From: Anaerolineales bacterium | GTDB taxonomy: Bacteria; Chloroflexota; Anaerolineae; Anaerolineales; UBA11858 | Length of the DNA: 36,637 nucleotides | Direction of reading: 5' to 3' | Assembly: GCA_036445875.1 (NCBI GenBank) | Contig: JAZFRV010000227.1 | Location: forward strand, 1-36,637 | Shown: positions 19,753 to 35,292 of the stretch, piece after piece | Layout of the letters: each line of letters begins with the position of its first letter | How positions within the stretch are numbered: position 1 is the first letter of the stretch | The notes under the pieces: generated by a model | The model's database searches: none | Seen by the model: the letters and a program-made list of their open reading frames with translations, nothing else | Told to the model about the DNA's origin: nothing | Made by a program: the position numbers and the translations under genes

Positions 19753-22368
19753 TCAGCGTCTGCGAATCCACCTAACACTATTTGATCGACAACCCGGACA
19801 GGAACGCTCAGAATCAGATTTGTATATTCCATTCCAGGTATCTTCACAGACAAGGCATAGAAAATCCGTCGGTTGATTTTCATCCTTATTCCTTGGATTA
19901 CGAGGTCCGGGCACCTTGGCTTCCATCAATAACGTATGGGTATCCTGGATCATATCAAGGCTTACGGAAAGGCGTTTTTCTTCTACCTGTTTCATGATAT
20001 GCTGCCAACGCCCTCCTTCAGCCGCTGAACACCATTCCAGCACCAATCTGGTGGGATCCAACCCAACCTTTTCCATGCCATCCCACAATCCATCCACTCG
20101 CCGGGTAGTGCTGCGATTGGCATCAATGTAATGGCAGTCCACATAATGGCAGCCGGATACCAATACAACTGGTGCTCCTTTTTTGAAGGCATACCAGACA
20201 AATTCCGGGCTAACCCTGCCGGAACACATGGTCCGGATAATATTGGCATGGGGAGGATATTCCATACGCCCCACGCCTGCGGTATCTGCACCAGCGTAGG
20301 AACACCAATTACAGGCAAACGTCACAATCGATTCTTGTGGATTTTCATCCAGCATAGCGTCTATTTGGGCGTAAATAGCCTGGTCAGAGAAATGACGCAT
20401 TTCGATGGACCCATATTTACATTCCGCAGCACATGTTCCGCAGCCAGTGCAGGCTGCGGTGATAACCTCAGCTGCCTGCCCTTTTTCCCAAATGATTGCA
20501 CTAAATGGACAAACATCGGCGCATAAACCACAAAGCTTGCACAGCCCTTCATCAATTACCGCGGTGATGGCATCCACAGAGAATTGATCTTGATTTAGCA
20601 AGATAGAAGCTCTTGAAGCAGCAGCGCTGGCCTGGGTGACACTTCCGCGGACATCCTTAGGGGATTCCACTCCTCCGGCTATAAATACACCCTTTGTGGG
20701 GGTATCAACTGGGCGCAGCTTAGGATGCGCTTCCCTTAAAAATCCACTCGGGGATTTAGAGAGACTGACCATTTGGCGGATGGTCTCTGTATTATCTGCT
20801 GGAACAGCTCCAACAGCCAATACCAGTAAATCAAAATTGTGTTGCTCCAGGCGGTTGCTGGTAGTGTTTTCCACTGTCAGCTTAAGATCTCCCGTGACAG
20901 GATCTTCCACTACATCACCGGGTAAACCACGGATATATGAAACTCCATTGGATTTACTTCGCATTAACAACTCCTCAAAACCTTTACCAAAGGCGCGAAG
21001 ATCTGTATAAAACACTGTGGACTCCACTTCCGGGTGGGCGTCATTTAAGTATTGGGTTGTTTTAATGGTGTTCATGCAGCAAAAATTTGAACAATAGGGG
21101 TTGCCGCGTTCCGGATCCTGGGTTCTGGACCCTACACATTGAATGAAACCAATCTTATTGGGAAAAGCCAGATCACTCGGCCGGCTCAGTTTCCCTTCCA
21201 AAGGACCACTGGTACATATTAACCGCTCGAACTCCAAACTGGTCATCACATTAGCGTAGTTTTTATATCCATATTCATCCAATGGAGTTGGATCATAAAG
21301 GTCCATGCCCGTCGCAACAATAACCACACCCACTTCTACATTTAATATTTCATCCTGCATCGTAAAATCAATACAGGCTTTTTCACAGGCTTCAATACAT
21401 TTCCCACAAGCAATCGGATTCTGCCCCAGGCATTCGTTTGCATTCACGACATATGCGGAAGGAACTGCTTGAGGAAAAGACAGGAAAATCGCCCGGCGGC
21501 TTCCTAATCCAACCTGGTATTTATCCGGGATCACGATCGGGCAGACTTCTGCGCAATCTCCACAGGATGTACACTGGGTTTCATCTACATAACGGGCTTT
21601 CTTGCGAATCCTGGCTTTAAAGTTGCCCACATAACCAGAGATATCTTCTACCTCTGAATGTGTTAGTAATTTGATGTTGGGATGTCGACCGACATCCATC
21701 ATTTTGGGTCCGAGTATTCAAATACTACATTCGATATCCGGATATACTTTATCCAGCTGAGCCATGATGCCGCCAATAGAAGGCTCACGTTCCACAAGGT
21801 AGACTTGATGCCCGGAATCTGCCAGATCGAGAGCCGCTTGAATTCCCGCTACTCCTCCTCCGATAACCAAGGCAGCATCAGTTACTTGAATCTGCTCTTC
21901 ATCTTGGGGAATCAACCACCGGGATCTCGCAACTGCAACCTTAACAGTTTTTTTGGCTTTTTCAGTAGCTGCCTTTTTATCACTGGCAGTCACCCAGGAG
22001 CAGTGTTCCCTGATATTTGCCATCTCCAGCAGATATGGATTTAACCCTGCCCCTTCAATACATTTGCGAAAGATCACCTCATAAGAGGTTGGGGAACAAG
22101 ACGCGACCACTATCCGGTTTAGATTAAAATCGGTTATGGCTTTTTGAATTTCCTGTTGGCCCGGTTCTGCACAAGTATATTTGTTCCGAATAGCCACAAT
22201 AACGTCGGGTAAACCCGCTGCATACTCCCTGACAGCCTCAGTGTCAACCGTTCCAGCAATATTTGACCCACAATCACAAACAAAAACCCCAATGCGTAAA
22301 TTGTTGTCTGGCAATGGTATCCTCCTATTCATTTTTTGTTTGATTTCAATAACCTGTATTTCATTCAT
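19753..22368 (-). CDS. hdrA: Heterodisulfide reductase subunit A-like flavoprotein, predicted selenoprotein (TGA at 21718-21720 read as Sec217), fused C-terminally to an MvhD domain and a zinc ribbon; 871 aa
   Basis: Track ORFs 21718-22368 and 19753-21702 are in the same frame, separated by TGA plus five sense codons. The joined sequence reads ...GGGVAGIQAALDLA...GGIMAQLDKVYPDIECSI-U-ILGPKMMDVGRHPNIKLL..., which is continuous with the conserved HdrA FAD-domain block. The downstream ATG has no RBS. Also present: the N-terminal Cys domain VFVCDCGSNI, an inserted ferredoxin CTSCGDCAEVCP, C-terminal 2x[4Fe-4S] CKLCGLCADVCP/CTGCGTCAAEC, MvhD-like FACNWCSYAGADTAG...CSGRV...VSGCHYVDCHY, and the tail CLVC-x17-CPGC. 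Confidence 0.8.
21672..21701 (-). promoter_or_regulatory. SECIS-like stem-loop downstream of the in-frame TGA of hdrA
   Basis: mRNA sequence: UGA AUACUCGGACCCAAAA UGAUG GAUGUCG GU CGACAUC CCAA CAUCA. The upper stem G(G)AUGUCG/CGACAUC(C) (21680-21697) has 7-8 perfect bp with a GGUC/GU apical loop. A lower 5-bp stem UGAUG/CAUCA adds a 4-nt bulge. The hairpin starts about 20 nt after the UGA. Confidence 0.55.
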
Positions 22369-23513
22369 ATTTGGTCAGCAATAATTGTAGTAAGATCACG
22401 AATATTAATTTGAATATCCTCCCCCAGGATGGGATCATTCTGGGCACATTTAAGATGGATCTGACATTTGATACAAGCGGTAATTAATAAATCAGCCCCG
22501 GAAGATTTTGCCTCTTCCAAGCGCTCCACTTGAGCTTTTTTATTCACCTGTCCACATGAAGTCCAGCAGCTAGTTCCACAGCACAGACTGGATTTACGAT
22601 TGTGGGTCATCTCCTTTACTTTGAAACCCAATCCCCTAATTAACTCACGAGGTGATTGATATACCCCGGAAAATCGTCCCAATCGGCAAGGATCCTGATA
22701 GGTAACCGGTTTGTTCTTATTAGCAGAATTATCGGGGAGGGTTTCCAACAAATCTGTATCTACCAATAATTCTGCCAGATGCAAAACCTCCATCCCGGAA
22801 TTCCCGATTATTTCAGGATAAGTGTGTTTTAAGGTCCAGGCACATTCAGGACAAGTAGTAACTATTCGTTTGGCTCCGGTAGACATAAGGTTCAATAAAT
22901 TCGTTTCCCCCAATTTACGAAAGATATTCATATCACCTTGCCAATATTGATCATGACCACAACAGCGCTCATCCTTTAATACTATGGGTTCAATACCCAG
23001 ATAGTTGAGAATTTTAAGGGCTGCCCTGGTAATGTCTATCCCCTCAATATCCAATTGGCTGAAGGCAGCATCATAATACGGCAAACAACCGGTAAAGAAT
23101 ACCGTATCAGAGTCTTCAGAGACCTGGAGATCATCTTCAATCCAGTCCAGCCGGTTCTGTTTCAAATCAGGATCAGACATCATTCGGCTCCAGGTTTGCA
23201 TCATCCCACTGTGGGTGCAATTGGCAGACTGATTCCGATCTCTGGCTCCTTCCCGGATATTCTGGATAAAATCAGAAAAAGATACCTGGGAGGGACATAT
23301 CTCAGTGCAGTAATTACAGGTTAAGCAAGACCAGAGAAGTGGGTCGTTTAATATGGCTTCTTCACCTGAATTGATCGCCATCTCAACCAGCAGCCGGGGA
23401 CTGGTATAAGGTTCAACAATATGCCTGGTAATAGGACAGACTGAACTGCATTTACCACAATCCAGGCAAAGCCAAACCCGGTTCGATTGGATGATTTCTT
23501 TTAATCCATTCAT
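22365..23513 (-). CDS. Fused HdrC-HdrB-like subunit (2x[4Fe-4S] ferredoxin domain plus two CCG domains)
   Basis: 382 aa. CLDCGKCSSVCP and CLTCNYCTEICP (HdrC-like). Two complete CCG signatures: C-x40-CCG-x35-CPEC and C-x34-CCG-x34-CIKC. ATGA overlaps with both neighbouring genes. Confidence 0.8.
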   Translation of the reverse strand: MNGLKEIIQSNRVWLCLDCGKCSSVCPITRHIVEPYTSPRLLVEMAINSGEEAILNDPLLWSCLTCNYCTEICPSQVSFSDFIQNIREGARDRNQSANCTHSGMMQTWSRMMSDPDLKQNRLDWIEDDLQVSEDSDTVFFTGCLPYYDAAFSQLDIEGIDITRAALKILNYLGIEPIVLKDERCCGHDQYWQGDMNIFRKLGETNLLNLMSTGAKRIVTTCPECAWTLKHTYPEIIGNSGMEVLHLAELLVDTDLLETLPDNSANKNKPVTYQDPCRLGRFSGVYQSPRELIRGLGFKVKEMTHNRKSSLCCGTSCWTSCGQVNKKAQVERLEEAKSSGADLLITACIKCQIHLKCAQNDPILGEDIQINIRDLTTIIADQI

Positions 23514-23917
23514 TGATTTCCTAGAATCTCATCAATCCCATTTGTAAAAATTTGGATAATCTCTCTAAAGGATTTGCCGTCCCTAGTATCTACAAAATCC
23601 AGTTGGAATTGATTATCGTTGTAACCCAACAAGTTCAGAAGATTTCTGGTTTCCGGAACAATCTCGGCAATCTGTTTGTTCCCGGTTTCATATTGACACT
23701 CACCTTGGCTACAACCAAGTAATAATACGCCGTTGGCACCATTCTCAAATGCTCTCAAAATTATTCCCGGTGTGATTCGGCCCAGACAAGCAATCCGGAT
23801 TGGGTATACAGTGGGAGAATAAGGAATCTTCTCAGCTCCAGCTGCCTCAAGACCACTGTAAGCATTCCAATTACAGGTAAATAAAATAATCTTTGAAATC
23901 TTCTCTTCTGTTTTCAT
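23510..23917 (-). CDS. mvhD: MvhD/FlpD-like [2Fe-2S] electron-transfer subunit
   Basis: 135 aa. ILFTCNWNAYSGLEAAG...IRIACLGRITPGIILRAFENGANGVLLLGCSQGECQYETGN matches the methyl-viologen-reducing hydrogenase delta subunit family. Confidence 0.8.
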   Translation of the reverse strand: MKTEEKISKIILFTCNWNAYSGLEAAGAEKIPYSPTVYPIRIACLGRITPGIILRAFENGANGVLLLGCSQGECQYETGNKQIAEIVPETRNLLNLLGYNDNQFQLDFVDTRDGKSFREIIQIFTNGIDEILGNQ

Positions 23918-23918
23918 A

Positions 23919-26900
23919 TTAAGCCAGAATTGTTTTTATCATTTCCTCCAACTGCAGGTCTGGGGAGTGTCCAGGGGTAATCGCTCCGGAAGGGCAAATT
24001 GCTGCGCAGATGCCGCAGGCAAGGCATAATTTTGGATCAATGAAAGAATATCTGCCAGAGGCCTCTTCTATGAGGTCCGGAATACCAAATCCACAAACCT
24101 CAACACATGTTCCGCAAGCCCGGCAGCGGGATTTATCAACCTCAGCTGCAGACAATTCTGTTTTGTTATTAATCTTGTTTATCCAGGCAGCAATCCGGGC
24201 AGCCCCGGACATTCCTGAAATCTCGGCATTCACATCAGGTGGGAACATGAGTACTCCAAAATCCAGTGAATTGATCCGTGAGTCTACTAATTGAAAAAGC
24301 GAGCGACCATCAGGCATCTGAAGCACATCACACAAAAGCTTTTGCTCCTTTTTGGTTCCCGGAGTAATAACCAGCAGATCCGTCAATAATTCAGAGCTTT
24401 CAAATGTCAGGATAACATGGCCGCCCTTTCGAAGGATCTTTTTCGGAATCTCACCTATCATTTCTGTTTCTATGCCCAACTCGATCAGAGAGGACTTGCA
24501 AATTTCCCCAGCTGGTCCACTTCCGACAATGAGAACTTTATTGGATTCATAAGTGTGTGATTGCTCTCCAGTTTTTCTAGATCGGAGGCGTGACAGGGCA
24601 GTTATAATCAGGATTTTTGCTATTTCAGTAGCCTTATCCGGGAGATCTTGATGTACCCAGGCACATTGTTCACGGATATTTACAAATTCGATGGGAATGC
24701 TGCTCTTTAAGGATGAAAAAATTCCCAGGTTGTCTTTGCAGCGTAACCGCTGATAAGTACAGCTGAAACAGATCTGATCCAGGGAGCAGCAGGTGCAGGC
24801 TGCAAGAATTACCTTATCGAGGTCCTCTACCTGGATGATATCCATAATTTCACCTGCAGCATCTTCAGAACAGGAGAATTGCAGTTCCTGAGCATGGACT
24901 ATTCCAGACCAGTTCACTGCCTCTGCGCTGAGGGTATTTGTATCGACAATATCGGAGATCTCACCTCCACACTGGCAGAGGAACAATCCGATTCTATCCT
25001 CGGCCTTCTCCAGTAAAGCTAGTTGAGGGATATTCTGAATAGTAGGAATCAGGTTTAATTTTAAATCCTTCATCACCTGGTACGCGGCAGCCGATCCCGT
25101 TTCCAGGTCCTCCCCGGCAACTTGGTATCCCTCAACACCATCAAATTCAATCGGGATATCGTCTGCAAATATCACTGCACCAGCGTCTATAAACGATCTT
25201 GATGAAGTTTGATTATGGATTATCGCACCCGGCTCACAAACCTCCACACAGGCCATACATTGGCTGCAGGGACCACAAATTAAACAGCGCCCAGCTTCCT
25301 GTAAGGCAGCTTCTTCACCGAGAGTCAAACCAACTTCATAAAAATTATTTTTCCGATCCTTTACTGGTAAGTGAGTTATCGCAGCCCTATTAAATCTAAC
25401 CTGATCTCTTTGATCAAGCCTGTTTCGCATTTCTTTCTGGCTTAGAATTACTTCCGAAGGTCCACTCTCCGTGATCTCGAGTAATTTCCCCTTCAGATAA
25501 TTATCTATGGACCGGGCAGCATGATGCCCTTCCCCGACTGCATCAACAACAAAAAAGGTAGTTCCGCGACGAACATCCCCCGCAGTAAATACACCCTCCA
25601 TCGATGTCATCATCCGGGAATCAGCCCGAATTCCTTCCGGAGAAAGTACGGTAATCCGGTCATTTTTCGGTAAAAATCCGAAATCCGGCCTTTGTCCAAC
25701 AGCCCAAATCACCAGGTCCCCGGGAATAATATGTTCAGTTCCGGGAAGCTCACTGAATTGGCGTTTTCCATCAATTACCTCTCCTATTTCCGCATCCAAA
25801 CATTCCACCCCGGAAATATCACGTTGGTCGAGGACTATTTTCTTAAATACCTTCCCCCGGATGATTTCGATTCCCTCTTCTTCAGCATCCAGGATTTCAT
25901 TAAACGATGCCCTCATCCCCCTGCATACCAATCGGACTTCTGGAGTACCCAATCGAATTGCTGCCCGGGCAGCATCCATGGCAACATCACCACCACCCAG
26001 GACAATGACTTTTCTGCCGCTGAGATCAATTTTTTCCCCCAGACAAACCTTTTTCAGAAACTCTAGACTGAGCCAGTTCTGGGGATGATCAGCATTTTCA
26101 ATAGGAATTTTCACTGCCTCGTGGGCACCTGTAGCTATCAGAACTGCGTCATATCCATTACTTAAAAGCCCGGGAATATCATCCACCCAGGTATTCAGTT
26201 TAAGGTCAACACCCTCCGAAAGGATTTGTTGAATTTCCCAATCCAATTGATCATATGGTAAACGATGAGGAGGAATGCCAACCCGCATCATGCCGCCAGC
26301 TGTAGAATTAGCATCAAAAACTGTAACCGCATGCCCGCTGTGGATCAAATCTCGGGCGGCAGTTAACCCTGCCGGGCCTGCCCCGATAATAGCTACTTTT
26401 TTTCCCGAAGAGGGACGCTTATCATCTGAAGTGCTATCCAAAGAAAGCTTTGGATCCTCTGATTGGTCATCTTTTCGCCTGTAAGCCCAATCCGCCACAT
26501 ACCGTTTCAAAGCCATCAGGTTTACCGCTTCATCCAATTGCGCACGTGAGCAGGCTTCTTCACAATAATGATTGCACACACGTCCACAGACGGATGGAAA
26601 CGGCAGTGCCGAGTGGATCAGATCATATGCTTCCTGGTACCGTTCCTGGGCGATCAATGCCACATAACCCTGAACGTGAATACCTGCTGGACAGGCATAT
26701 GTGCAGGGAGAAACTCCTGCTTTTTCTATCACTGCACAACCAGGCTGTCCTTCCAGAAAAATGGCTTTTCGATCAGATCCGGGAACTATCACCGGGCAGA
26801 TCTCGATACAATCACCACAAGCAGTGCATTTCGAGAGATCTACATATCGGGGATACTGCTGCAGAACAGCCTGAAAGATCCCGTTCACTTTAGTTAATTT

Positions 26901-27116
26901 CTGCAGCGATGTATTTGTCCAGGGAGTAATATTCGGATGTTTTAGAATTTCCAGCAATCTTTGGTTTAATAAATAATCCGGGAAGAGGTGCTCTCCGTTT
27001 ATCCCCATAAACGGACTGGATTCAATGACGTTCACCTTAATCCCTGAAAAGGCAAGGTCCAATGCAGCTTGTAATCCTGCCTGGCTGCTGCCAATGATGA
27101 GCACTTCTTTAACCAT
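23919..27116 (-). CDS. Large HdrA-like / NfnB(GltD)-like mosaic flavo-iron-sulfur protein (HdrL-like), 1065 aa
   Basis: aa 1-130: HdrA-type Rossmann start VLIIGSSQAGLQAALDLA plus CTACGDCIEICP. aa ~136-545: GltD/NfnB-like module (CTYACPAG...CGRVCNHYCEEAC, VAIIGAGPAGLTAARDL, VIVLGGGDVAMDAARAA, VFTAGDVRRG). aa 611-630: CLICGPCSQCMACVEVCEPG. aa 708-822: HdrA N-domain-like (LFLCQCGGEI...FVNIREQCAWV). aa 861-: VLIVGSGPAGE. aa 997-1045: CRACGTCVEVC/CLACGICAAICP. Confidence 0.75.
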   Translation of the reverse strand: MVKEVLIIGSSQAGLQAALDLAFSGIKVNVIESSPFMGINGEHLFPDYLLNQRLLEILKHPNITPWTNTSLQKLTKVNGIFQAVLQQYPRYVDLSKCTACGDCIEICPVIVPGSDRKAIFLEGQPGCAVIEKAGVSPCTYACPAGIHVQGYVALIAQERYQEAYDLIHSALPFPSVCGRVCNHYCEEACSRAQLDEAVNLMALKRYVADWAYRRKDDQSEDPKLSLDSTSDDKRPSSGKKVAIIGAGPAGLTAARDLIHSGHAVTVFDANSTAGGMMRVGIPPHRLPYDQLDWEIQQILSEGVDLKLNTWVDDIPGLLSNGYDAVLIATGAHEAVKIPIENADHPQNWLSLEFLKKVCLGEKIDLSGRKVIVLGGGDVAMDAARAAIRLGTPEVRLVCRGMRASFNEILDAEEEGIEIIRGKVFKKIVLDQRDISGVECLDAEIGEVIDGKRQFSELPGTEHIIPGDLVIWAVGQRPDFGFLPKNDRITVLSPEGIRADSRMMTSMEGVFTAGDVRRGTTFFVVDAVGEGHHAARSIDNYLKGKLLEITESGPSEVILSQKEMRNRLDQRDQVRFNRAAITHLPVKDRKNNFYEVGLTLGEEAALQEAGRCLICGPCSQCMACVEVCEPGAIIHNQTSSRSFIDAGAVIFADDIPIEFDGVEGYQVAGEDLETGSAAAYQVMKDLKLNLIPTIQNIPQLALLEKAEDRIGLFLCQCGGEISDIVDTNTLSAEAVNWSGIVHAQELQFSCSEDAAGEIMDIIQVEDLDKVILAACTCCSLDQICFSCTYQRLRCKDNLGIFSSLKSSIPIEFVNIREQCAWVHQDLPDKATEIAKILIITALSRLRSRKTGEQSHTYESNKVLIVGSGPAGEICKSSLIELGIETEMIGEIPKKILRKGGHVILTFESSELLTDLLVITPGTKKEQKLLCDVLQMPDGRSLFQLVDSRINSLDFGVLMFPPDVNAEISGMSGAARIAAWINKINNKTELSAAEVDKSRCRACGTCVEVCGFGIPDLIEEASGRYSFIDPKLCLACGICAAICPSGAITPGHSPDLQLEEMIKTILA

Positions 27117-27133
27117 CGTTTTTCCCTATCGAA

Positions 27134-28696
27134 CTATTCATCCAGCTCCAATCCTCTTTTGTAGCCGGCTTCAAATACTTCCAAATTTAAACTAACTGTT
27201 TTAGCAGGTACAGATTCTGCAATTGCTTCCTGCATAGCTTCTTTATCTACTATTCGTTCCACCGCGGTCCAAAAACCCAGCATAGCTGTATTTGCGGCCC
27301 TGTTGTTGCCAGCATCCTTGGCAATTTTTGTAGCAGAAATTCCAAAGGTTTTAATATCATCCCGGTGATCTTCCGGGAGGGTCACTAATTCATCATCTAT
27401 CAACAGGACTCCATCCTGCTTAAGATCTGCAATATATTTTTCGTATGCCCCCTGGGACATCATGATCATGCTGGTTGGCTGAGTCAGATGAGGATGGTGG
27501 ATAGGTTTACTGGAAATCACCACTTGTGATCCTGCCGCTCCCCCTCTTGCTTCCGGTCCATAACTTTGAGTAAAACACGCCTCCAGATTGTTATAAACAG
27601 AAGCTGCCATACCAATAATCTTGCCTGCGCTCATAATGCCCTGACCCCCAAAACCACCCAGCTGAATTTCAGTTCGGGACACTTTCTCTTTTTTTGGTGG
27701 TAATTTTTTCCGTTTATCAAGAGCGTCTTTTTCACCCTGCCAGTATTTTTCAGCCAGATCTTTTCGCTGATTAATAGCCTCTTTAAAATCTGGCCTAGAC
27801 TCCTGCAGGAATTCACCTTCTACGATTTCTATCATTTCTCCGGACTCATTTACTTTAACGTGAGCATCTTTGGGATGAATTCCGTGTTCTGTCCGTCCTA
27901 CTTTCTGGTAATGTTTCATAACCTCCAAACCGCGCCGTTGGAGGTTTTCCGGATCCAATCCCTTCCCTTCTGGATTCCAACGGGCATAAGCAGTTGAACA
28001 AGGAGCGATAATTTCCACAAAACTGAAGCCGGAATGGGTTAACGCTTTCCTCAATGTCCAATCCAATTGACGGGCATGGAGCGTTGTCCAGCGGGCGACA
28101 AAGGATGCCCCACTGGCTGCGGCCAGATAAGGCAAGTTAAAAGGGAATTCATAATTTCCATATTGAGCAGTGACCGCCCGGGCTTCATGGGGTGTTGTTG
28201 GACCCACCTGGCCACCAGTCATACCGTAATTAAAATTGTTCACACAAACTACCGTGATACTTAGATTTCTCCTGGCAGCATGGATCAAGTGATTTCCTCC
28301 AATACCTGCCATATCTCCATCTCCGGATATGACGATTACCTTCAACTCCGGATTGGCGATTTTCAGACCGGTAGCAAAAGGAATTGCCCTGCCGTGAGTT
28401 GTGTGGAAGGAATCCAACCTGACATAACCAGCAATCCTGCCTGTGCAACCAATACCGGATACAACAGCAACTTTATCCAGATCCCATCCCTGATTTTTCT
28501 CCAGCCATTGTAAGGAGCTGATAAAGGAAGTTAAAGCAGTTCCCAAACCACAGCCCTGGCACCAGATATGGGGAAGTCTTTCTCCACGCAGTAAATCATC
28601 CATCGGGTGCAATCCGGTTTCCCAATCACTGTCAGCCGGTGTATCATAATTCATAATCCGCAACCGTTCACTACGTTCCATTTCATCAGTTGTCAT
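27134..28696 (-). CDS. 2-oxoacid:ferredoxin oxidoreductase beta (TPP-binding) subunit fused to the gamma subunit
   Basis: 520 aa. Beta-subunit motifs WCQGCGLGT, SGIGCTGR, ISGDGDMAGIGGNH. A Lys-rich linker DKRKKLPPKKEKV follows. Then the gamma-subunit motifs IQLGGFGGQGIMSAGKI...GPEARGGAAGS. Confidence 0.8.
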   Translation of the reverse strand: MTTDEMERSERLRIMNYDTPADSDWETGLHPMDDLLRGERLPHIWCQGCGLGTALTSFISSLQWLEKNQGWDLDKVAVVSGIGCTGRIAGYVRLDSFHTTHGRAIPFATGLKIANPELKVIVISGDGDMAGIGGNHLIHAARRNLSITVVCVNNFNYGMTGGQVGPTTPHEARAVTAQYGNYEFPFNLPYLAAASGASFVARWTTLHARQLDWTLRKALTHSGFSFVEIIAPCSTAYARWNPEGKGLDPENLQRRGLEVMKHYQKVGRTEHGIHPKDAHVKVNESGEMIEIVEGEFLQESRPDFKEAINQRKDLAEKYWQGEKDALDKRKKLPPKKEKVSRTEIQLGGFGGQGIMSAGKIIGMAASVYNNLEACFTQSYGPEARGGAAGSQVVISSKPIHHPHLTQPTSMIMMSQGAYEKYIADLKQDGVLLIDDELVTLPEDHRDDIKTFGISATKIAKDAGNNRAANTAMLGFWTAVERIVDKEAMQEAIAESVPAKTVSLNLEVFEAGYKRGLELDE

Positions 28697-28740
28697 AAAA
28701 TTTTCTCCACATTTCCACCATAAAATCCCATCGATTGGAT

Positions 28741-29931
28741 TCAGGTCTTCTGGGGGACTGCTGCAGCTTTCCTGATCGCATTTAAGACATCCTCGGGATC
28801 CAGAATATCACCCCCGGGTTTATGAACTCCGAATACCTGTGCCTGCCCGGCAGCACTTCGTTCCACCTCGCGGACAATCTGCCCCATATTAATTTCCGGC
28901 ACTACAAATGCGCTGACCTTTTTGGCTAGTTTTGAGATGGTATCTTCCGGAAAAGGCCAAACAGTGATTAACCGGAGATAACCAACCTTAATGCCTTCTT
29001 TTCTAGCCTGCTCAATCGGCCAGAGAGAGGTTCTGGCTGAGATACCATAGGAAATTACAACTACCTCGGCATTCCTAAGTTTGTCGGTTTCTACTTCAAT
29101 TATTTCTTTCCTATTGGCATTGATTTTATCCATCAAGCGGGTGACATTCCACTGATTTGCTTCAGCGTTCATAGCGGGATAACCACGCTCGTCGTGTGTC
29201 AAACCAGTAACATGAATGCGGTAACCATCCCCGGCTTTCACCATGGGAGATATATGTTTTGGATCACTTGCAGGACTATCCCTGAATATTCTGAAATGGT
29301 CCGGCTCTAGATCTCCTTTATGAACTAGCGGTCGGTTGATGATTTCTATTTCTTCAACAGGCGGGATGACAACTTTTTCTGTCATGTGACCAACTTCTGC
29401 ATCAGTCATGACCAGAACGGGTGTCCTGTATTTCTCAGATAGATTAAAAGCCCGGATAGTCAGGTCAAAAAGTTCCTGAGGGGAGCTGGGGCAGAGAGCA
29501 ATAATTTCATAATCACCGTGAGAACCCCATCTAGCCTGCATCATATCCTGCTGCCCGACCAGTGTTGGTAAACCGGTAGATGGTCCTCCCCGTTGGACAT
29601 TCACTATCACACAGGGGGTTTCCAGCATTATTCCAAGACCAAGATTCTCCATCATCAATGAAAACCCAGGACCGCTGGTTGCTGTCATTGATTTTTCGCC
29701 TGCCCAGGAAGCGCCCAGGATAGCATTCATGGATGCCAACTCATCTTCCATCTGGATAAAATTTCCATTCACCTGAGGAAGCCGAACAGACATTCTTTCT
29801 GCAATTTCCGTTGCCGGCGTAATCGGGTATCCAGCAAAAAATCGACAGCCAGCCAGGATCGCTCCTTCCGCACAGGCATGATCTCCCAACATAAAATGTT
29901 CTCCGCTAAGTCTGCCTTTTTCTTTATTCAT
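28741..29931 (-). CDS. 2-oxoacid:ferredoxin oxidoreductase alpha subunit
   Basis: GDHACAEGAILAGCRFFAGYPITPATEI...TSGPGFSLM...QRGGPSTGLPT. I moved the start to Met20 of the track ORF (ATG at 29931). It has a GGAG RBS and an 8-nt overlap (ATGAATAA) with the delta subunit stop. Confidence 0.85.
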   Translation of the reverse strand: MNKEKGRLSGEHFMLGDHACAEGAILAGCRFFAGYPITPATEIAERMSVRLPQVNGNFIQMEDELASMNAILGASWAGEKSMTATSGPGFSLMMENLGLGIMLETPCVIVNVQRGGPSTGLPTLVGQQDMMQARWGSHGDYEIIALCPSSPQELFDLTIRAFNLSEKYRTPVLVMTDAEVGHMTEKVVIPPVEEIEIINRPLVHKGDLEPDHFRIFRDSPASDPKHISPMVKAGDGYRIHVTGLTHDERGYPAMNAEANQWNVTRLMDKINANRKEIIEVETDKLRNAEVVVISYGISARTSLWPIEQARKEGIKVGYLRLITVWPFPEDTISKLAKKVSAFVVPEINMGQIVREVERSAAGQAQVFGVHKPGGDILDPEDVLNAIRKAAAVPQKT

Positions 29932-30235
29932 CCATACTCCCCTGGCGGTGAATTGGTATGACTCTTTCAGGCGAATGTTTTCCACCATCTTCTATATATA
30001 TTGCAAAATCAGGACACAAGAGTGTACATAAACCACAATTAATACATTGAGTACCAGGAATAATTTCCGGAGGATGATACCCTTTGGCATTTGTACGTTT
30101 AGAAATCTCTAGAATTTCCTGGGGACAGAATTCAATGCAAAAACCGCACCCTTTACACCGGTCATCGACGATATGAACGATACCGTGTGTAATAAGAATG
30201 CGGTCCCTGTCAAGTGGTTGTCTCCAAAGAGTCAT
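29924..30235 (-). CDS. 2-oxoacid:ferredoxin oxidoreductase delta subunit (2x[4Fe-4S] ferredoxin)
   Basis: 103 aa. CKGCGFCIEFCP and CINCGLCTLLCP. GGAGG RBS directly upstream. Its position ahead of the alpha subunit is typical of four-subunit OFORs. Confidence 0.8.
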   Translation of the reverse strand: MTLWRQPLDRDRILITHGIVHIVDDRCKGCGFCIEFCPQEILEISKRTNAKGYHPPEIIPGTQCINCGLCTLLCPDFAIYIEDGGKHSPERVIPIHRQGSMDE

Positions 30236-30366
30236 AGCTCCTCCCTGGTAAGTTCAATAACCAACAACCAATAAAGTTTAATCAATCTATCAGATGCAAA
30301 TCTATTAATATGTTTTCGAATATTCTCAATAAAATGCGCTGCATTAACAACCAAATCTGATTTTGG

Positions 30367-31398
30367 TTAGAACATCAGATTATTTATCTCCTCCAGTGAT
30401 TTTGGATCCGGGCGTAATTTTTCATTCGGCAAACGATTCAGGGGTGTATCTGGTAAATCATACAGGTCAAAAAGGGATTTTTGTTTCGGATTGATATATA
30501 TTAATCCGGTAATTAACTCGTTTCTATCGTTGGCTTCTTCCAGCATCTGGAGAGCATTTGCTCTATCAGTTGGTTCATAATCATGGGCAAGTTTTTTAAG
30601 GATGATATGGGTACCATCGTAGAGCGGTACTTCCAATGCTTCGCCTTTTTCATACTGAACCTTAATTGCACGAACAGGCGGGACAAAAGATAACTCATGC
30701 AGTGCAACCTCATGAGATTTGCCCCAAGCATAGGAATGGAAAGAATCATCCTGGTTGTTAAAAGTCACACAAGGACTGATCACATCGATGACTGCAATTC
30801 CGCGATGATGAATTCCTGCTTTTATGAGTGCCTTCAATTGCTGGGGATCCCCGGAAAATGTTCGAGCCACAAATGATGCCCGCCCGGCGATGGCTTCCCA
30901 AACAATATCTACCGGCACATATCGGTTCTGGCCCTGTTTTTTGAGCGCTAACCCCTGTTCCGCAGTAGCTGAAAACTGGCCCTTCGTTAAACCATAAACC
31001 CCATTATTGGCTACGATATAGAGAAATGGCAAATTTCGGCGTGTTACATGTTTAAACTGACCCATCCCAATACTCGCAGTATCTCCATCACCACTCACTC
31101 CGATTCCAATCAGGGATGTATCTCCAAACAAGGCGCCGGTAGCAAGGGATGGCATACGCCCATGTAAACCATTAAATCCAAACGCACGATTCATAAAATA
31201 GGTCGGTGCTTTGCTTGAACAACCAATCCCGCTAACTTTAATCAATCTTTCCGGCGGGATATTCAATTCATAACAGGCAGAGATAATCTGACCAACAATA
31301 GCGTTATGGCCGCAACCCAAGCACAAGGTGGTTTGTTTTCCCTTGTAATCTTCTTTGGATAATCCAATTTCATTCAACTTGACCGTTTTCTCAGCCAT
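30367..31398 (-). CDS. korB: 2-oxoglutarate/2-oxoacid:ferredoxin oxidoreductase beta subunit (two-subunit KorAB type)
   Basis: TLCLGCGHNAI, SGIGCSSK, GVSGDGDTASIGMGQF. I moved the start to Met14 (ATG at 31398), with a TAATG overlap with korA and a GGAG RBS. Confidence 0.8.
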   Translation of the reverse strand: MAEKTVKLNEIGLSKEDYKGKQTTLCLGCGHNAIVGQIISACYELNIPPERLIKVSGIGCSSKAPTYFMNRAFGFNGLHGRMPSLATGALFGDTSLIGIGVSGDGDTASIGMGQFKHVTRRNLPFLYIVANNGVYGLTKGQFSATAEQGLALKKQGQNRYVPVDIVWEAIAGRASFVARTFSGDPQQLKALIKAGIHHRGIAVIDVISPCVTFNNQDDSFHSYAWGKSHEVALHELSFVPPVRAIKVQYEKGEALEVPLYDGTHIILKKLAHDYEPTDRANALQMLEEANDRNELITGLIYINPKQKSLFDLYDLPDTPLNRLPNEKLRPDPKSLEEINNLMF

Positions 31399-33215
31399 TA
31401 AGATTTCTCCTCTTCCATCACTGCTGCTTTGATCCAATCTGCACTCAGGGGCATACCATCAATATGCGATACGGATACCAGGTCAGGTGCGCTATCAGGC
31501 AGTTCTAAAGAAAGAATACTGTGCATTTGTCCATCCCGGTTATTTTCAACCACATAGATTCGCTTATACTCCCGGATGAAATCCAATACTTCTGCTGCAA
31601 CAGGTAGCGCGCGCACTCGCAAATAATCCAGTGTCAATCCCTCATCCTGTAATGAATCACAGGCTTCCCTCACCGCAGAATCTGTAGATCCAAAGGCAAT
31701 AACCCCAGACTTAGCACCGGAACGGGTAGTAATTTCCGGTTTTGGCAGGATCGCTCTGGATGATTCTATCTTTCTATTAATTCGATCCAGGTTTTCTTCC
31801 CATTCTTCAGGTTTTTCGCTGTAATTTGCAAAATCATCATGTCCTGTACCCCGGGCATAATAGGCACTCCTGGGATGCTGATTTCCCGGTACTGTTCGAT
31901 AAGGGATATTGTCTCCATCAAGATCAAGATACCTGCCCCACTTATCCTTTATCTTTTCCAGATCCTCTTCCCAGAGGATCTTGCCCCGGTCAATGGGCTC
32001 ATCCGGGTACTCAAATGGCGGTGTCATCCATTGATTTAGACCCAAATCTAAATCAGAAAGCACAAATATCGGCGTTTGCAGCTTTTCAGCCAGATCGAGG
32101 GCTTTCCAACCAAACTCAAAACACTCTTTAACTGTACCGGGAATAAGCACTACGTGTCTAGTATCTCCCTGGCCAAGGTAATACGTTTGGTTAACGTCAC
32201 CCTGTGCTGTCCGGGTTGGCAGCCCGGTACTAGGTCCCACCCGCTGAATTACCCAAATCACAACGGGTATTTCCACAAAATATGCCAGGCTTGCATATTC
32301 ACTCATCAAGCTCAATCCGGGACCGGAGGTAGCGGTCATTGCTCGTAATCCTGCCCAACCTGCCCCAACCACCATACCAATCGCAGCCAATTCATCCTCA
32401 GCCTGAATGATTGCATAAGTATCCTTACCAGTTTCGGGATCTTTTCTCAAGCCTGGAGCAAATTCCAGAATTGCCTCAGGTAAACTTGTTGCCGGAGTAA
32501 TTGGATACCAGGAAACGAAATGCATGCCCCCGTAGATAGTGCCCAATCCTCCAGCGGTATTGCCGTTTGCCAGATTAAACCCTTCAGTTAGATTCAGAGG
32601 TTGAACCTGAAAAGGTGAAACAATCTCCAGGTTGTTTTCAGCCCAATGGAAAGAATCATGGATCACAGACAAATTAAAATCGATAGGACCCTTTTTCCCT
32701 TTAAAGTGAAAATCAAGGGCGCTTTCGATAGTTTCCAGCTGGACCTTTAACAGGAAAGCCAATACTCCAACATACACCATATTAGCAACATAATCCCTCA
32801 GTTCACGGGGAGGTTTGGCTTCTTTTACGATGGATTTTACCGGCATGGGGCAGAGAATCAGGTCTTCCCGATGAATAGGTTCCTTAATATGATCTGCATA
32901 AAGAAAAATACCCCCTGAAACCAGGTCGGTCAGATCATCCCCAAAAGTCTTTGGATTCATTGCGACTGCAATTTCTGTCTTTTGACTGCGTCCCAAATAA
33001 CCGGCTTGGCTGACTCTTATTTTATACCAGGTAGGTAAACCTTGAATATTTGATGGAAAAATATTCTTTCCAGACACAGGTATCCCCATTTTAAAGATTG
33101 ATCTTATCAATGTTAAATTTGCTGTCTGACTGCCAGACCCATTTATGGTAGCGATATTGATTGAAAATTCATTCACTACCTTCTGTGTTTGCAATTTTAA
33201 CTGTGTTTTTGCCAT
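31398..33215 (-). CDS. korA: 2-oxoglutarate/2-oxoacid:ferredoxin oxidoreductase alpha subunit (gamma-alpha fused, KorA type)
   Basis: 605 aa. N-terminal gamma-like domain INIATINGSGSQTANLTL, then the alpha core WYPITPATSL...TSGPGLSLM...QRVGPSTGLPT. AGGAG RBS upstream. Confidence 0.8.
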   Translation of the reverse strand: MAKTQLKLQTQKVVNEFSINIATINGSGSQTANLTLIRSIFKMGIPVSGKNIFPSNIQGLPTWYKIRVSQAGYLGRSQKTEIAVAMNPKTFGDDLTDLVSGGIFLYADHIKEPIHREDLILCPMPVKSIVKEAKPPRELRDYVANMVYVGVLAFLLKVQLETIESALDFHFKGKKGPIDFNLSVIHDSFHWAENNLEIVSPFQVQPLNLTEGFNLANGNTAGGLGTIYGGMHFVSWYPITPATSLPEAILEFAPGLRKDPETGKDTYAIIQAEDELAAIGMVVGAGWAGLRAMTATSGPGLSLMSEYASLAYFVEIPVVIWVIQRVGPSTGLPTRTAQGDVNQTYYLGQGDTRHVVLIPGTVKECFEFGWKALDLAEKLQTPIFVLSDLDLGLNQWMTPPFEYPDEPIDRGKILWEEDLEKIKDKWGRYLDLDGDNIPYRTVPGNQHPRSAYYARGTGHDDFANYSEKPEEWEENLDRINRKIESSRAILPKPEITTRSGAKSGVIAFGSTDSAVREACDSLQDEGLTLDYLRVRALPVAAEVLDFIREYKRIYVVENNRDGQMHSILSLELPDSAPDLVSVSHIDGMPLSADWIKAAVMEEEKS

Positions 33216-33269
33216 TCACACTCCTGAAAAAACAACCCCAAACTTCTCTAGTAGATTAATTCTGAAATA

Positions 33270-33923
33270 TCAGACCAACATGCGATCCATCAAGTCAAAG
33301 TGCTCATGGAGGACTTTCAATCCCCGGGACTTATCCTTGATAATCGCGGCTTCGGCCAATTGTTCGTGGTAAGTCCAAACCTGTTCCAGGTATTCCAGGT
33401 CTGCGTAGACATTTAGTCCAACCGCTTCATAAGCATCCCAGTAGGCTTCCAGCAAACCTGACACAAAAATATTATTCAGACGGTTAAATAATGTGAGATG
33501 TAATTGGCGGTGTTCATCGTGGGGAATTCTAACAGGACTTCCCCTTAATTTTTCCCAGGCGTCCTGAACCAGCCGCCTCAGTTGCTGGTGATCTGATTTT
33601 TGCAAAAGGTCAACAGCCTGGGGAAAGTAAGCATATTCCAAATGCCTTCGAAGATCTACAAACTTTTCAAAATAACTGTTATCAAACTGGATCGCATAAC
33701 ATAAACTGGCATCTACAGCTGGTGCAAATGAATACGGAAGTGGTCGAATCCCCAACCGGGGTCGAACATCCACCAAACCCAAGGCTTTAGCAACTTCCAG
33801 CTGTTCCCTCAACCTGGAGATGCTTAATCCCAGTTCTATGCTGAGATCCTTCAGCGAAGGTAGCTTTTCATTTTCAGTTTCTGAATTTTGAAGGAGATAG
33901 AGAAAGAACTCTGAATGATCCAT
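33270..33923 (-). CDS. GntR-family transcriptional regulator, FadR subfamily (FCD C-terminal domain)
   Basis: HTH LPSLKDLSIELGLSISRLREQLEVAKALGLVDVRPRLGI followed by an all-helical C-terminal domain. I prefer the start at Met16 (33923, AGGGG RBS). The promoter -10 box abuts the track ATG at 33968. Confidence 0.75.
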   Translation of the reverse strand: MDHSEFFLYLLQNSETENEKLPSLKDLSIELGLSISRLREQLEVAKALGLVDVRPRLGIRPLPYSFAPAVDASLCYAIQFDNSYFEKFVDLRRHLEYAYFPQAVDLLQKSDHQQLRRLVQDAWEKLRGSPVRIPHDEHRQLHLTLFNRLNNIFVSGLLEAYWDAYEAVGLNVYADLEYLEQVWTYHEQLAEAAIIKDKSRGLKVLHEHFDLMDRMLV

Positions 33924-33968
33924 AGATTCGCCCCTAATATGATTAATCTGATCAATAAGATTAATCAT

Positions 33969-33997
33969 ATTATAACATTCTCGGATTTTAGCGTCAA
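33969..33997 (-). promoter_or_regulatory. Near-consensus sigma70-type promoter for the GntR regulator and probably the downstream OFOR/Hdr genes
   Basis: On the minus strand: TTGACG (33992-33997), 17-nt spacer, TATAAT (33969-33974). Confidence 0.6.
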
Positions 33998-34010
33998 GAA
34001 TAAATTAAGA

Positions 34011-34038
34011 GACCCGGTGCTTTTGCTAACACCGGGTC
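34011..34038 (-). terminator. Rho-independent terminator after the M20 amidohydrolase gene
   Basis: GACCCGGTG (34011-34019) pairs with CACCGGGTC (34030-34038). On the minus strand it is followed by TCTTAATTTATTCTT. Confidence 0.65.
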
Positions 34039-34113
34039 CCTATTAGTCAACAAAACGATCCGGAATCTACCAGGGAATAGGGATCATTGATCTGGGCAGT
34101 TATTCTGATTGAA

Positions 34114-35292
34114 TTAATCTTTTAATAGTTCATAAACCGCCGAAACCAATAGCGCCGTCCCCCGGGTTAAAACTTCCTCATCAAAGTTAAATTCTGGCTG
34201 ATGGTGCTTGGCATCCAGTCCCTTCTCAGGATTTGCCGAACCTATCAGGCAATAACATCCCGGAATATCCTGCATCATACAAGCCATATCTTCCGATGCC
34301 ATCGTTTGGTAACCAGGATCTATCACTCCGGCAGGAAATAAGTCACCCGCAACCCGCCGCAAGACTGCTGCAATCTCAGGATTATTGATAACGGCTGGGG
34401 AGATATCTTCAATTTTTACCTCAGCCTGGCATAAATATACAGCTGCCGTCGTTTCCACTACCTCGTGGAAACGATTGAGCAATAATTCTCTGGAATCCTC
34501 GGTGAAGGACCGGATTGTTCCGGTGAGGTTTACTTCTTCAGGGATCACATTGTGAGCCTCTCCCCCATGAATCGAGCTGACTGTGATTACACCGCTTTCC
34601 AGGGGTGGTATTTCCCGGGAGATTATAGATTGAAGTGTATTGATGATTCCAGCCGCTGCGACTATGGGATCCACTGCTTCATGAGGTTTTCCACCATGGC
34701 CGCCTTTCCCGGTGATGCGGACCATAAACGTTTCAGAGGCGGACATCATCGGCCCATCAGTTATACCAATCCAACCCAGGGGTTTTTCATTCCAGAGGTG
34801 CAAGGCAAGGGTGATATCAGGCACTGGGTCATTCAAAACCCCATCTGATATCATTGCAGAGGCGCCCCCTAATCCCTCTTCTGCCGGTTGAAAAACAAAC
34901 TTAATCGTTCCAGCTAGATTTTCACGGCTCTCATAAAGCAATCTGGAGGTCGACAATCCGATTGCCATATGACCGTCATGGCCGCAGGCATGCATTAATC
35001 CTTCATTTTGAGAAGTGTAATCGACGCCGGTATTTTCTACTACCGGCAAAGCATCCATATCAAAACGAAGTAAAATTACCCTTCCCGGTTTTCCACCGGT
35101 CAGGGTTCCTACAATACCAGTTCTGCCAATGCCAGTTTGAATCTGAAGATCTTCCAGAGTGGAGAGTTCTTTAATAATTCTTTCTGCAGTTCTATGTTCC
35201 TGAAATCCCAGTTCAGGGTGGCGGTGAAAATCCCGCCTCAAATCCCGCGAATATGGAAATATATCTTTGGCCTGGGAAAGAATAGCAGTCAT
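34114..35292 (-). CDS. M20D-family amidohydrolase (N-acyl-L-amino acid amidohydrolase / hippurate hydrolase-like)
   Basis: 392 aa. FHRHPELGFQEHRT, MHACGHDGH, FQPAEE and GKGGHG are metal-ligand and catalytic blocks of the M20D peptidase family. Confidence 0.8.
   Translation of the reverse strand: MTAILSQAKDIFPYSRDLRRDFHRHPELGFQEHRTAERIIKELSTLEDLQIQTGIGRTGIVGTLTGGKPGRVILLRFDMDALPVVENTGVDYTSQNEGLMHACGHDGHMAIGLSTSRLLYESRENLAGTIKFVFQPAEEGLGGASAMISDGVLNDPVPDITLALHLWNEKPLGWIGITDGPMMSASETFMVRITGKGGHGGKPHEAVDPIVAAAGIINTLQSIISREIPPLESGVITVSSIHGGEAHNVIPEEVNLTGTIRSFTEDSRELLLNRFHEVVETTAAVYLCQAEVKIEDISPAVINNPEIAAVLRRVAGDLFPAGVIDPGYQTMASEDMACMMQDIPGCYCLIGSANPEKGLDAKHHQPEFNFDEEVLTRGTALLVSAVYELLKD

Follow-up and report, generated by a model that had tools for sequence, protein, structure and literature searches.

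An HdrL-type iron-sulfur flavoprotein of uncultured Chloroflexota combines two shortened HdrA units with a permuted NfnL-like module

Flavin-based electron bifurcation in anaerobes is carried out chiefly by complexes that contain HdrA. Chloroflexota are abundant in sediments and digesters, and their energetics are poorly understood. The stretch analysed here, called the window, is the 36,637-nt contig JAZFRV010000227.1 of an Anaerolineales bacterium (assembly GCA_036445875.1). Its hdrL-type open reading frame (ORF; 23919..27116 on the minus strand, ATG start, TAA stop at 23921-23919) encodes 1065 residues and is a real, widely conserved gene for an HdrL-type iron-sulfur flavoprotein of uncultured Chloroflexota. 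With a probability of roughly 55%, we propose that this HdrL is a reduced input/output arm for NAD(P)H, which would reach a selenocysteine (Sec)-type HdrA via MvhD, bifurcation with HdrBC and ferredoxin taking place on that HdrA. Three other explanations, weighed below, were each rated less likely than this NAD(P)H-arm model.

The closest described proteins are the HdrLs of Desulfobacterium autotrophicum HRM2 and Syntrophobacter fumaroxidans, which, like the window protein, are large soluble fusions of HdrA and glutamate synthase beta with NAD(P)H-binding folds (PMC2702500, PMC5947623). The original prediction had given the HdrA-NfnB fusions of D. autotrophicum the name HdrL, correctly so (PMC2702500). 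As in the window, mvhD comes next and the gene clusters with hdrABC-type genes; these proteins have been proposed to let NAD(P)H into an Hdr complex, HdrL having been suggested as the point of entry for NADH (PMC2702500). S. fumaroxidans grown on sulfate contains abundant HdrABC/HdrL and also has an HdrAL/POR cluster, one HdrL cluster adjoining pyruvate:ferredoxin oxidoreductase (POR) in a manner that resembles the window (PMC5947623). The window protein bears the marks of an HdrL, as HdrA and GltD-like regions for NAD(P)H and flavin adenine dinucleotide (FAD) stand in one polypeptide with mvhD immediately next to it. Two of the D. autotrophicum HdrLs are selenoproteins, whereas the window HdrL has neither Sec nor Cys at that position. 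Compared with the Desulfobacterota HdrLs, solely by the descriptions in those papers, it further differs by its occurrence in Chloroflexota, by the truncation of both HdrA units and by a Cys-rich insertion in the HdrA N-terminal domain (N-domain).

Two other described arrangements are relevant. In HdrA9/10/11 of ANME-1 (anaerobic methanotrophic archaea), an NfnB-like insertion of about 500 residues interrupts the inserted ferredoxin domain, while HdrA3/4 and the Moorella HdrA consist of two HdrAs in one chain with complementary presence of the N-domain and of Cys197 (PMC9012536). The window HdrL unites both features, and its full-length relatives place the unit without N-domain first. Unlike the ANME and Moorella proteins, it has also lost Cys197 altogether and about 200 residues of each thioredoxin-reductase-like domain. 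Canonical HdrA, as found in HdrABC-MvhAGD (5ODC, 8RVU, 7BKB), shares with it a homologous N-domain, the FAD-type beta-alpha-beta fold, the inserted and C-terminal ferredoxin domains and an adjacent mvhD. Unlike canonical HdrA, the window HdrL consists of two partial units instead of a complete one, and is devoid of a complete thioredoxin-reductase-like domain, of the CxGSR..CxxxCC cluster motif and of Cys197. HdrL (2009), the HdrABC/HdrL and HdrAL/POR clusters of S. fumaroxidans (2018, PMC5947623) and the NfnB-interrupted or fused HdrAs (2022, PMC9012536) are already described. In the searchable literature, which holds few subscription journals and is weak evidence in this respect, no description was found of the doubly truncated HdrL form, of the covariation between loss of Cys197 and gain of N-domain cysteines, of the permuted topology of the HdrL insert that is typical of Bfu NfnA, or of a conserved operon of HdrL and 2-oxoacid:ferredoxin oxidoreductase (OFOR) in Chloroflexota.

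More than 100 clusters of homologues, found on many contigs, were retrieved from a collection of 5.8 billion proteins, with 45-91% identity, 100% coverage and lengths of 1044-1117 residues. In a scan of species-representative genomes, hdrL was present at 48-72% identity in metagenome-assembled genomes (MAGs) of Anaerolineales and other Chloroflexota, and at 31-34% identity to the window protein in Dehalococcoidia. Desulfobacterota matches that spanned several separate hdrA genes instead of one ORF (L033-L035 and others) were set aside. An assembly chimera, a risk named with the original prediction, is ruled out by the same architecture in these more than 100 full-coverage clusters and by the conserved gene order on syntenic contigs of independent MAGs. 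A look-up of the exact protein sequence yielded no recorded entry. One Anaerolineales MAG (L021) carries two tandem hdrL paralogues (L021:5673-8987 and L021:8991-12356), 48% and 41% identical to the window protein, between OFOR genes and mvhD-hdrBC-hdrA.

The domain organization was established by searches against Pfam, NCBIfam and the PDB, which agree on the central claim of the original prediction, an HdrA-like scaffold interrupted by a complete GltD/NfnB-like FAD and NAD(P)H module. The Pfam domain scan found Fer4_20 at residues 136-214, Pyr_redox_2 at 239-530 (E 1.7e-37), a single Fer4 motif (90-109) and, at 997-1047, a 2x[4Fe-4S] domain. The top NCBIfam model, PRK12771 "NAD(P)-binding protein", covers residues 133-645 with 462 bits, under its cut-off of 516, and the N-terminal residues 1-170 of the HdrA2/HdrA models match residues 708-889. 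In the PDB, phmmer aligned residues 3-114, 617-653, 705-906 and 953-1060 with residues 144-263, 301-337, 10-198 and 545-649 of HdrA, respectively. The HdrA-type start with a CxxCxxCxxxCP motif within residues 1-130 (the motif being C97/C100/C103/C107) and the C-terminal 2x[4Fe-4S] domain are thereby confirmed, and the nucleotide spans assigned beforehand to the GltD unit (25482-26711) and to the N-domain (24651-24995) agree with the conversion from residue numbers. Invariance of residues was judged over 68 homologue sequences, in which every ferredoxin-type Cys motif is invariant.

Unit 1 starts with residues 1-88 (26853..27116; this and all following features are on the minus strand unless stated), which form an HdrA-type beta-alpha-beta followed by a beta-meander, according to PDB phmmer, alignment, conservation and the secondary structure of an AlphaFold2 (AF2) model. 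Its nucleotide-binding motif GSSQAG (residues 9-14) is degenerate, the middle Gly being Ser or Thr in most homologues, and the Cys197 motif is deleted (HL---FPD-----YLLNQ). The first half of the inserted ferredoxin domain follows (residues 89-133; 26718..26852; Pfam, phmmer, conservation), with the invariant cysteines of C97-x2-C100-x2-C103-x3-C107-P. This domain is then split by the GltD/NfnL-like module (residues 134-616; 25269..26717), delimited by Pfam, PDB matches, Foldseek and segment mapping, and resumes at residues 617-636 (25209..25268), which align with HdrA 301-320 and contain C617-x2-C620-x2-C623-x3-C627-EP, also with invariant cysteines. A Cys-rich cluster had been predicted at residues 611-630. 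The cysteines are there; they do not make a single unit, as C611 and C614 belong to the GltD-type module and C617 to C627 to the inserted ferredoxin domain. The tail of unit 1 (residues 637-690; 25047..25208) consists of an 'ATG'-type strand, IDAGAVIFADD, then GYQVAGEDLETGSAAAY and a helix, as assigned by alignment with HdrA 325-337, the blastp map and the AF2 model (strand 639-650, helix 671-684). The stretch of about 200 residues that lies in HdrA between this strand and GYQVAGEDLETGSAAAY is missing, and the latter may be the closing motif of the FAD domain.

Unit 2 begins with an HdrA N-domain at residues 706-845 (24582..25001; C714, C716, C749, C774 and C818), recognized through NCBIfam HdrA2 1-170, PDB HdrA 10-198 and alignment. 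It contains the Cys-rich insertion at residues 774-793 (24738..24797), C774-T-C776-C777-SLDQI-C783-FS-C786...C793, defined by alignment and conservation. Residues 858-985 (24162..24545; alignment, blastp, Foldseek) form a reduced thioredoxin-reductase-like core with a GSGPAG beta-alpha-beta, short beta-sheets and an FGVLMFPPD...GMSGAARIAAW helix, without inserted ferredoxin domain and without the CxGSR..CxxxCC motif. The second Rossmann start, placed at residue 861, had been thought degenerate, and the reverse is the case: GSSQAG of unit 1 is the degenerate motif and GSGPAG (residues 865-870) is canonical, with G865 invariant and G867 present in 67 of the 68 sequences. In the aligned homologues, beta-2 of unit 2 does not end in a conserved acidic residue. 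The protein ends with a 2x[4Fe-4S] ferredoxin domain (residues 990-1050; 23967..24149; Pfam Fer4_7 at 997-1045; HdrA 545-649), the cysteines of which are invariant (C998, C1001, C1004, C1008; C1031, C1034, C1037, C1041). In the AF2 secondary structure, each unit keeps the beta-alpha-beta, a short sheet and the closing helix.

The presence of an N-domain in the middle of the protein, rightly noticed in the original prediction, had been taken as a permuted domain order. Circular permutation of one HdrA was rejected in favour of a tandem fusion after an architectural series was built from blastp maps against the complete HdrA of the window. Two Desulfobacterota proteins of about 1020 residues (L042, L079) are tandem HdrA fusions without GltD insert, in which unit 1 is an HdrA without N-domain and unit 2 carries the N-domain and a ferredoxin domain at its C-terminus, without the inserted one. 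Four proteins of 1480-1670 residues, from Bacteroidales, Sumerlaeota/BRC1 and one Chloroflexota MAG (L011, L015, L052, L026), have the tandem together with the GltD-like module in the inserted ferredoxin domain of unit 1, and a complete thioredoxin-reductase-like domain in both units. The tandem therefore occurs without the insert as well as at full length with it, and the mid-protein N-domain is the start of a second HdrA unit. The window HdrL and its Anaerolineales and Dehalococcoidia relatives have the tandem and the insert, each unit being shorter by about 200 residues; judged from these sequences, the window protein is a shortened derivative of the full tandem form with insert. An Actinomycetota protein of 1232 residues (L017) is a single HdrA carrying the insert, and is the closer counterpart of the single-HdrA type of ANME-1.

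The C-terminal part, residues 600-1065, was modelled alone, as the best 50 Foldseek matches of the full-length model were all of GltD/NfnL/DPD type. With this AF2 model (predicted local distance difference test score, pLDDT, of 72), the only significant PDB matches were HdrA chains (5odh_A at 5e-18), and the FAD domain of thioredoxin reductases was matched locally over about 105-110 columns with root-mean-square deviations (r.m.s.ds) of 2-3 Å. The deletions and the way in which the domains are arranged keep the global template-modelling (TM) score to HdrA low (0.30), so that the E-values and the local matches to thioredoxin reductase are the informative part.

The GltD/NfnL-like insert contains an iron-sulfur subdomain (C138, C142, C177, C181, C185, C189), a fold for FAD with G245AGPAG and another for NAD(P)H with G374GGDVAMD and VC398R399G. 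Both dinucleotide motifs, G245AGPAG and G374GG, are invariant. After a linker comes a segment, DRKNNFYEV...EAGRC611LIC614, that is N-terminal in other families. The kinship of the insert was judged by the ranking of matches in bit score, by fold scores and by a permuted topology in common. Residues 136-623 match the solved NfnL-like domains of the Bfu-type NfnA and of StnA best, namely 9bov_A (Caldicellulosiruptor Bfu NfnA, 281 bits), 9n5u_A (Thermococcus sibiricus NfnA, 266 bits) and 8oh5_C (StnA, 240 bits), which are also the best fold matches, with Foldseek E-values of 1e-41 to 1e-39 (PMC11829005, PMC10482914). Matches to NfnB/NfnL, GltD and DPD are weaker, with 193 bits for NfnB (4ylf_B) and about 155-157 bits for GltD. 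The full-length AF2 model (pLDDT 80, predicted TM score 0.70) superimposes on NfnI-L and Thermotoga maritima NfnB with a TM of 0.78 and r.m.s.ds of 2.6-2.9 Å, and on GltD with a TM of 0.75-0.77. From these comparisons, the NfnL-like domains of Bfu-type NfnA and StnA appear to be the nearest relatives of the insert, NfnB and GltD being more distant. In the Caldicellulosiruptor structure, this domain is a plain entry site for NADPH to the Fe-S chain, and bifurcation takes place elsewhere (PMC11829005).

The topology tells the same families apart. Residues 587-616 (DRKNNFYEVGLTLGEEAALQEAGRCLIC), which follow the FAD/NADPH body, align with residues 537-601 of the NfnA and StnA chains, where an R..NF.EV..EA.RCLxC segment likewise comes after that body and the NADPH site feeds an Fe-S chain. 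The same residues also align with the N-terminal residues 14-60 of NfnB (4ylf_B), 15-56 of NfnI-L, 56-89 of DPD and 21-53 of GltD; the individual E-values are marginal, and the pattern is consistent across families. The C-terminal position of the RCLxC segment means that the insert is circularly permuted relative to NfnB, GltD and DPD, in which this segment is N-terminal. The permutation cuts inside the first Cys motif, so that the module opens with C138-x3-C142-P and closes with C611 and C614, and C617-x2-C620-x2-C623-x3-C627-EP of the HdrA inserted ferredoxin domain comes straight after C614. NfnB/NfnL of NfnSL, GltD and the N-terminal half of DPD nevertheless have the same fold as the insert (TM 0.75-0.78, r.m.s.ds of 2.6-3.8 Å), the same FAD and NADPH motifs and the same Cys pattern for two [4Fe-4S] clusters, with lower similarity (193, 192, 155-157 bits).

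The context of the module differs from that of all these relatives. In Bfu NfnA and StnA, it lies between the [2Fe-2S] N-terminal domain and a formate-dehydrogenase-like domain, together with the NuoF/NuoE-like BfuBC, whereas in the window it lies within an HdrA ferredoxin domain; no BfuB/BfuC (NuoF/NuoE-like) or formate-dehydrogenase-like domain was found in HdrL or the window genes scanned. In contrast to the NfnB and GltD systems, there is no NfnA/NfnS or GltB partner gene among the scanned window genes; a PyrK-like NfnA/NfnS partner was not named in scans of the larger window ORFs, which did not include a dedicated NfnA/NfnS search. Two invariant cysteines, C398 and C439 (nt 25923-25925 and 25800-25802), lie inside the NAD(P)H-binding domain, C398 standing where NfnA and NfnB have the Tyr of their YRR motif.

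Three differences distinguish the reduced forms from their full-length relatives. The CxGSR..CxxxCC motif occurs in the HdrA of the window, in each of the two units of L011, L015, L026, L052, L042 and L079, and in L017, and is missing from the window HdrL, L007 and L021. The cluster that it holds in the thioredoxin-reductase-like domain is on the route to HdrBC in canonical HdrA (PMC9012536). The second difference concerns Cys197, which in solved HdrA is the fourth ligand of the [4Fe-4S] cluster in the N-domain of the other protomer (PMC9012536). Full tandem relatives have it in the TFPTNDCAMC motif of unit 1, while unit 2 has the N-domain without Cys197. In the reduced forms, Cys197 is gone from unit 1 too, and the alignment shows neither Cys nor Sec there in either unit. 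This agrees with the reading of the DIECSI(U/C)ILGPKM position in the original prediction, as does the in-frame TGA in the partner HdrA; the term redox-active motif has to be given up, since Cys197 is a cluster ligand (PMC9012536). Thirdly, the N-domain insertion AAC-x-CC-x5-C-x2-C is limited to the reduced forms, with C776, C777, C783 and C786 invariant in the 68 sequences; at this site, (A/S)C(S/T)PR(T/L)HE is found in canonical proteins and in the full tandem ones. The AF2 model has a pLDDT below 50 in this loop (residues 777-799). The loss of Cys197 from unit 1 covaries with the gain of N-domain cysteines, both being confined to the reduced forms, which suggests that the new cysteines replace the lost trans ligand in cis or else form a new cluster. 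This coupling bears on the assembly of the unusual N-domain cluster.

The same residues bear on an alternative that we consider unlikely, in which HdrL would replace one HdrA protomer in an asymmetric core with the Sec-HdrA. Sec would complete the N-domain cluster of HdrL in trans, and the GltD-like module would end the low-potential branch, with NAD(P)+ as low-potential partner instead of free ferredoxin. Such a role would fit the trans ligation by Cys197 in solved HdrA and the complementarity of tandem and fused HdrAs (PMC9012536), the occurrence within the operon of Sec or Cys at the Cys197 position only in the partner HdrA, and the location of the insert in the inserted ferredoxin domain, the branch by which canonical HdrA reduces ferredoxin. 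However, four invariant cysteines were gained in the N-domain where the trans ligand was lost, which points to replacement in cis. HdrL moreover already has two HdrA-like units, as in a self-contained pseudo-dimer, and the N-domain of the Sec-HdrA would have no partner Cys in the heterodimer.

The genes around hdrL are those of an Hdr system preceded by an OFOR. Downstream are mvhD (FlpD family, 135 residues; 23510..23917), its ATG 1 nt past the hdrL stop, a gene for an HdrD-like HdrC-HdrB fusion of 382 residues with two CxxCxxCxxxC and two complete CCG motifs (22365..23513), and the gene for a complete HdrA (19753..22368). [quoted passage not shown] Directly upstream of hdrL lies OFOR 1 (27134..30235), comprising the delta ferredoxin subunit (29924-30235), alpha (28741-29988) and a fused beta-gamma (27134-28696), the last ending 18 nt before hdrL. 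Ten Chloroflexota MAG contigs with the reduced form have the order OFOR-HdrL-MvhD-HdrBC-HdrA in common. It is kept in L002-L005, L021, L007-L009 and L013, of which the Dehalococcoidia loci (L007-L009, L013) read OFOR(delta, alpha, beta, gamma)-HdrL-MvhD-HdrBC-HdrA; OFOR genes are upstream of hdrL in all Anaerolineales and Dehalococcoidia loci examined. One homologue (P0056) has an MvhD domain joined to the HdrL C-terminus (residues 1093-1201), 56% identical to the MvhD of the window. The homologues P0076, P0109 and P0112 likewise contain the MvhD/FlpD domain PF02662, the four proteins being 1184-1222 residues long; its C-terminal position was verified for P0056.

The partner HdrA is a candidate selenoprotein, with Sec assigned from the in-frame TGA that is conserved where Cys197 would be. 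The hdrA gene is split into two ORFs at this codon likewise in L002-L005, L021 and L013, and is one continuous ORF there in the Dehalococcoidia L007-L009, implying a sense codon, presumably for Cys. A check for a selenocysteine insertion sequence in the window yielded a GGAUGUC/GACAUCC hairpin (21672-21701) about 20 nt past the UGA, no more stable than shuffled sequence (z -0.63).

The proximity of the OFOR genes raises a further alternative, rather improbable in our view, namely that HdrL works without bifurcation and independently of HdrA and HdrBC, as a ferredoxin (or OFOR):NAD(P)+ oxidoreductase comparable to the NAD+-dependent phenylglyoxylate dehydrogenase or to GltD-type modules elsewhere. 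It would draw electrons from the neighbouring 2-oxoacid oxidoreductases via its ferredoxin-like domains and pass them to NAD(P)+. The 18-nt spacing, the constant position of OFOR before hdrL, the HdrAL/POR cluster of S. fumaroxidans (PMC5947623) and the simple NADPH site formed by the related module in Bfu NfnA (PMC11829005) would all suit such an enzyme. Nevertheless, OFOR 1 has its own delta ferredoxin subunit, like enzymes that use free ferredoxin, and mvhD, hdrBC and hdrA follow hdrL as consistently as OFOR precedes it, MvhD being sometimes fused to HdrL. [quoted passage not shown]

In the NAD(P)H-arm model, the two HdrA-derived units would be fused as an intramolecular pseudo-dimer, with the Bfu-NfnA-type FAD/NAD(P)H module spliced into the inserted ferredoxin domain of unit 1. 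We infer the occupancy of the cofactor sites and the order of the electron path as follows. Hydride would be exchanged between NAD(P)H and the FAD of the GltD-like module, from which single electrons would pass through the two [4Fe-4S] clusters of this module, then the two clusters of the split inserted ferredoxin domain. They would cross the N-domain cluster, where the missing trans Cys197 is probably replaced in cis by C776/C777/C783/C786, and proceed through the two clusters of the ferredoxin domain at the C-terminus to the [2Fe-2S] protein MvhD and finally to the complete selenocysteine HdrA that this operon also encodes. Solved complexes show MvhD delivering electrons to HdrA at its C-terminal ferredoxin domain (PMC9012536). 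HdrL would thus take the place that MvhAG or FdhAB have in methanogens. On the FAD of the partner HdrA, bifurcation would send one branch to the HdrC-HdrB fusion, which has intact CCG motifs and a putative disulfide-type substrate, and the other to ferredoxin (Fd), the cofactor of the two 2-oxoacid:ferredoxin oxidoreductases encoded upstream. The net reaction, in either direction, would be 2 NAD(P)H + Fd(ox) + R-S-S-R' <-> 2 NAD(P)+ + Fd(red) + 2 thiols. As both units have lost the thioredoxin-reductase-like part of about 200 residues, including the HdrC-feeding cluster, HdrL cannot itself serve HdrBC.

Several points weigh against the NAD(P)H-arm model. The coenzyme motif of the insert is VCRG(M/E)(R/M), that is C398-R399-G-x-(R/M), instead of the YRR of NfnA and NfnB, so that either NADH or NADPH may be the preferred coenzyme. 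Unit 2 keeps G865-x-G867-x-x-(G/A), so that a second flavin in HdrL is possible. The partner HdrA already has its own fused MvhD domain, which makes the bridging roles of the two MvhDs ambiguous, and it is gene order and one fusion that suggest complex formation. No HdrL-type protein has been characterized biochemically or structurally in the searchable literature. That HdrL itself bifurcates, via the GltD-like FAD as in NfnSL or via a flavin in unit 2, giving two bifurcation sites as speculated for the ANME-1 HdrA-NfnB fusions (PMC9012536), is very unlikely even though the NfnB of NfnSL carries the bifurcating FAD in a fold shared at a TM of 0.78 and G865xG867xx(G/A) is conserved, because no NfnA/NfnS-like partner ([2Fe-2S] and second FAD) appears in Pfam/NCBIfam scans of the flanking genes (19753-35292) or in those of genes farther upstream, the non-bifurcating NfnL-like domain of Bfu NfnA is both nearer to the insert and collinear with it, the high-potential exit cluster is gone from both HdrA units, and an acidic residue is not conserved at the end of beta-2 in unit 2.

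A more specific form of the NAD(P)H-arm model is put forward tentatively, with more doubt than confidence. In Anaerolineales and Dehalococcoidia, an HdrA-HdrA-NfnL fusion may have been pared to an Fe-S wire, poor in flavin, that has lost its bifurcating and HdrC-feeding parts, replaced Cys197 by the four-Cys insertion in cis (possibly with an extra or differently ligated cluster), and serves as the dedicated NAD(P)H arm of an OFOR-linked bifurcating Hdr system acting on a putative thiol/disulfide substrate. If true, Chloroflexota would have a means, not described before, of balancing NAD(P)H, ferredoxin and a thiol pool. The reduced HdrL can be regarded as a natural minimal construct, which keeps the NAD(P)H module, all the ferredoxin-type clusters and the MvhD-docking end while dropping the flavin and HdrC-facing parts, and so separates the 'input wire' from the 'bifurcation' function of the HdrA scaffold. 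In Chloroflexota, the conserved operon with its two OFORs and a complete Sec-HdrA/HdrBC is a candidate system for the reduction of ferredoxin by NAD(P)H or for the opposite reaction.

Within OFOR 1, the ORF at 29924-30235 encodes 103 residues with two CxxCxxCxxxCP motifs and is likely the delta subunit; it overlaps the listed start of alpha, the true start of which is therefore probably further downstream. A second 2-oxoacid:acceptor oxidoreductase (OFOR 2) is encoded at 30367..33215 by a gamma-alpha fusion (31398-33215) and beta (30367-31437). With a GntR/FCD-family regulator and an M20 peptidase it makes up the upstream region 30367-35292, and the order M20 peptidase, GntR/FCD regulator, OFOR2, OFOR1, HdrL, MvhD, HdrC-B fusion, HdrA is the same in L002-L005. 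This suggests a larger conserved unit, possibly for amino-acid or 2-oxoacid catabolism. On the plus strand, 13800-14933 encodes the beta subunit of succinyl-CoA synthetase (ATP-grasp_2 and CoA-ligase domains), and the adjacent ORF at 14964-15824 presumably the alpha subunit. These genes fit the action of one OFOR on 2-oxoglutarate/succinyl-CoA, NCBIfam having given no substrate specificity. Also on the plus strand, 8581-11880 encodes a protein of 1099 residues with an N-terminal PMT_2-type glycosyltransferase region and C-terminal NHL-repeat beta-propeller repeats.

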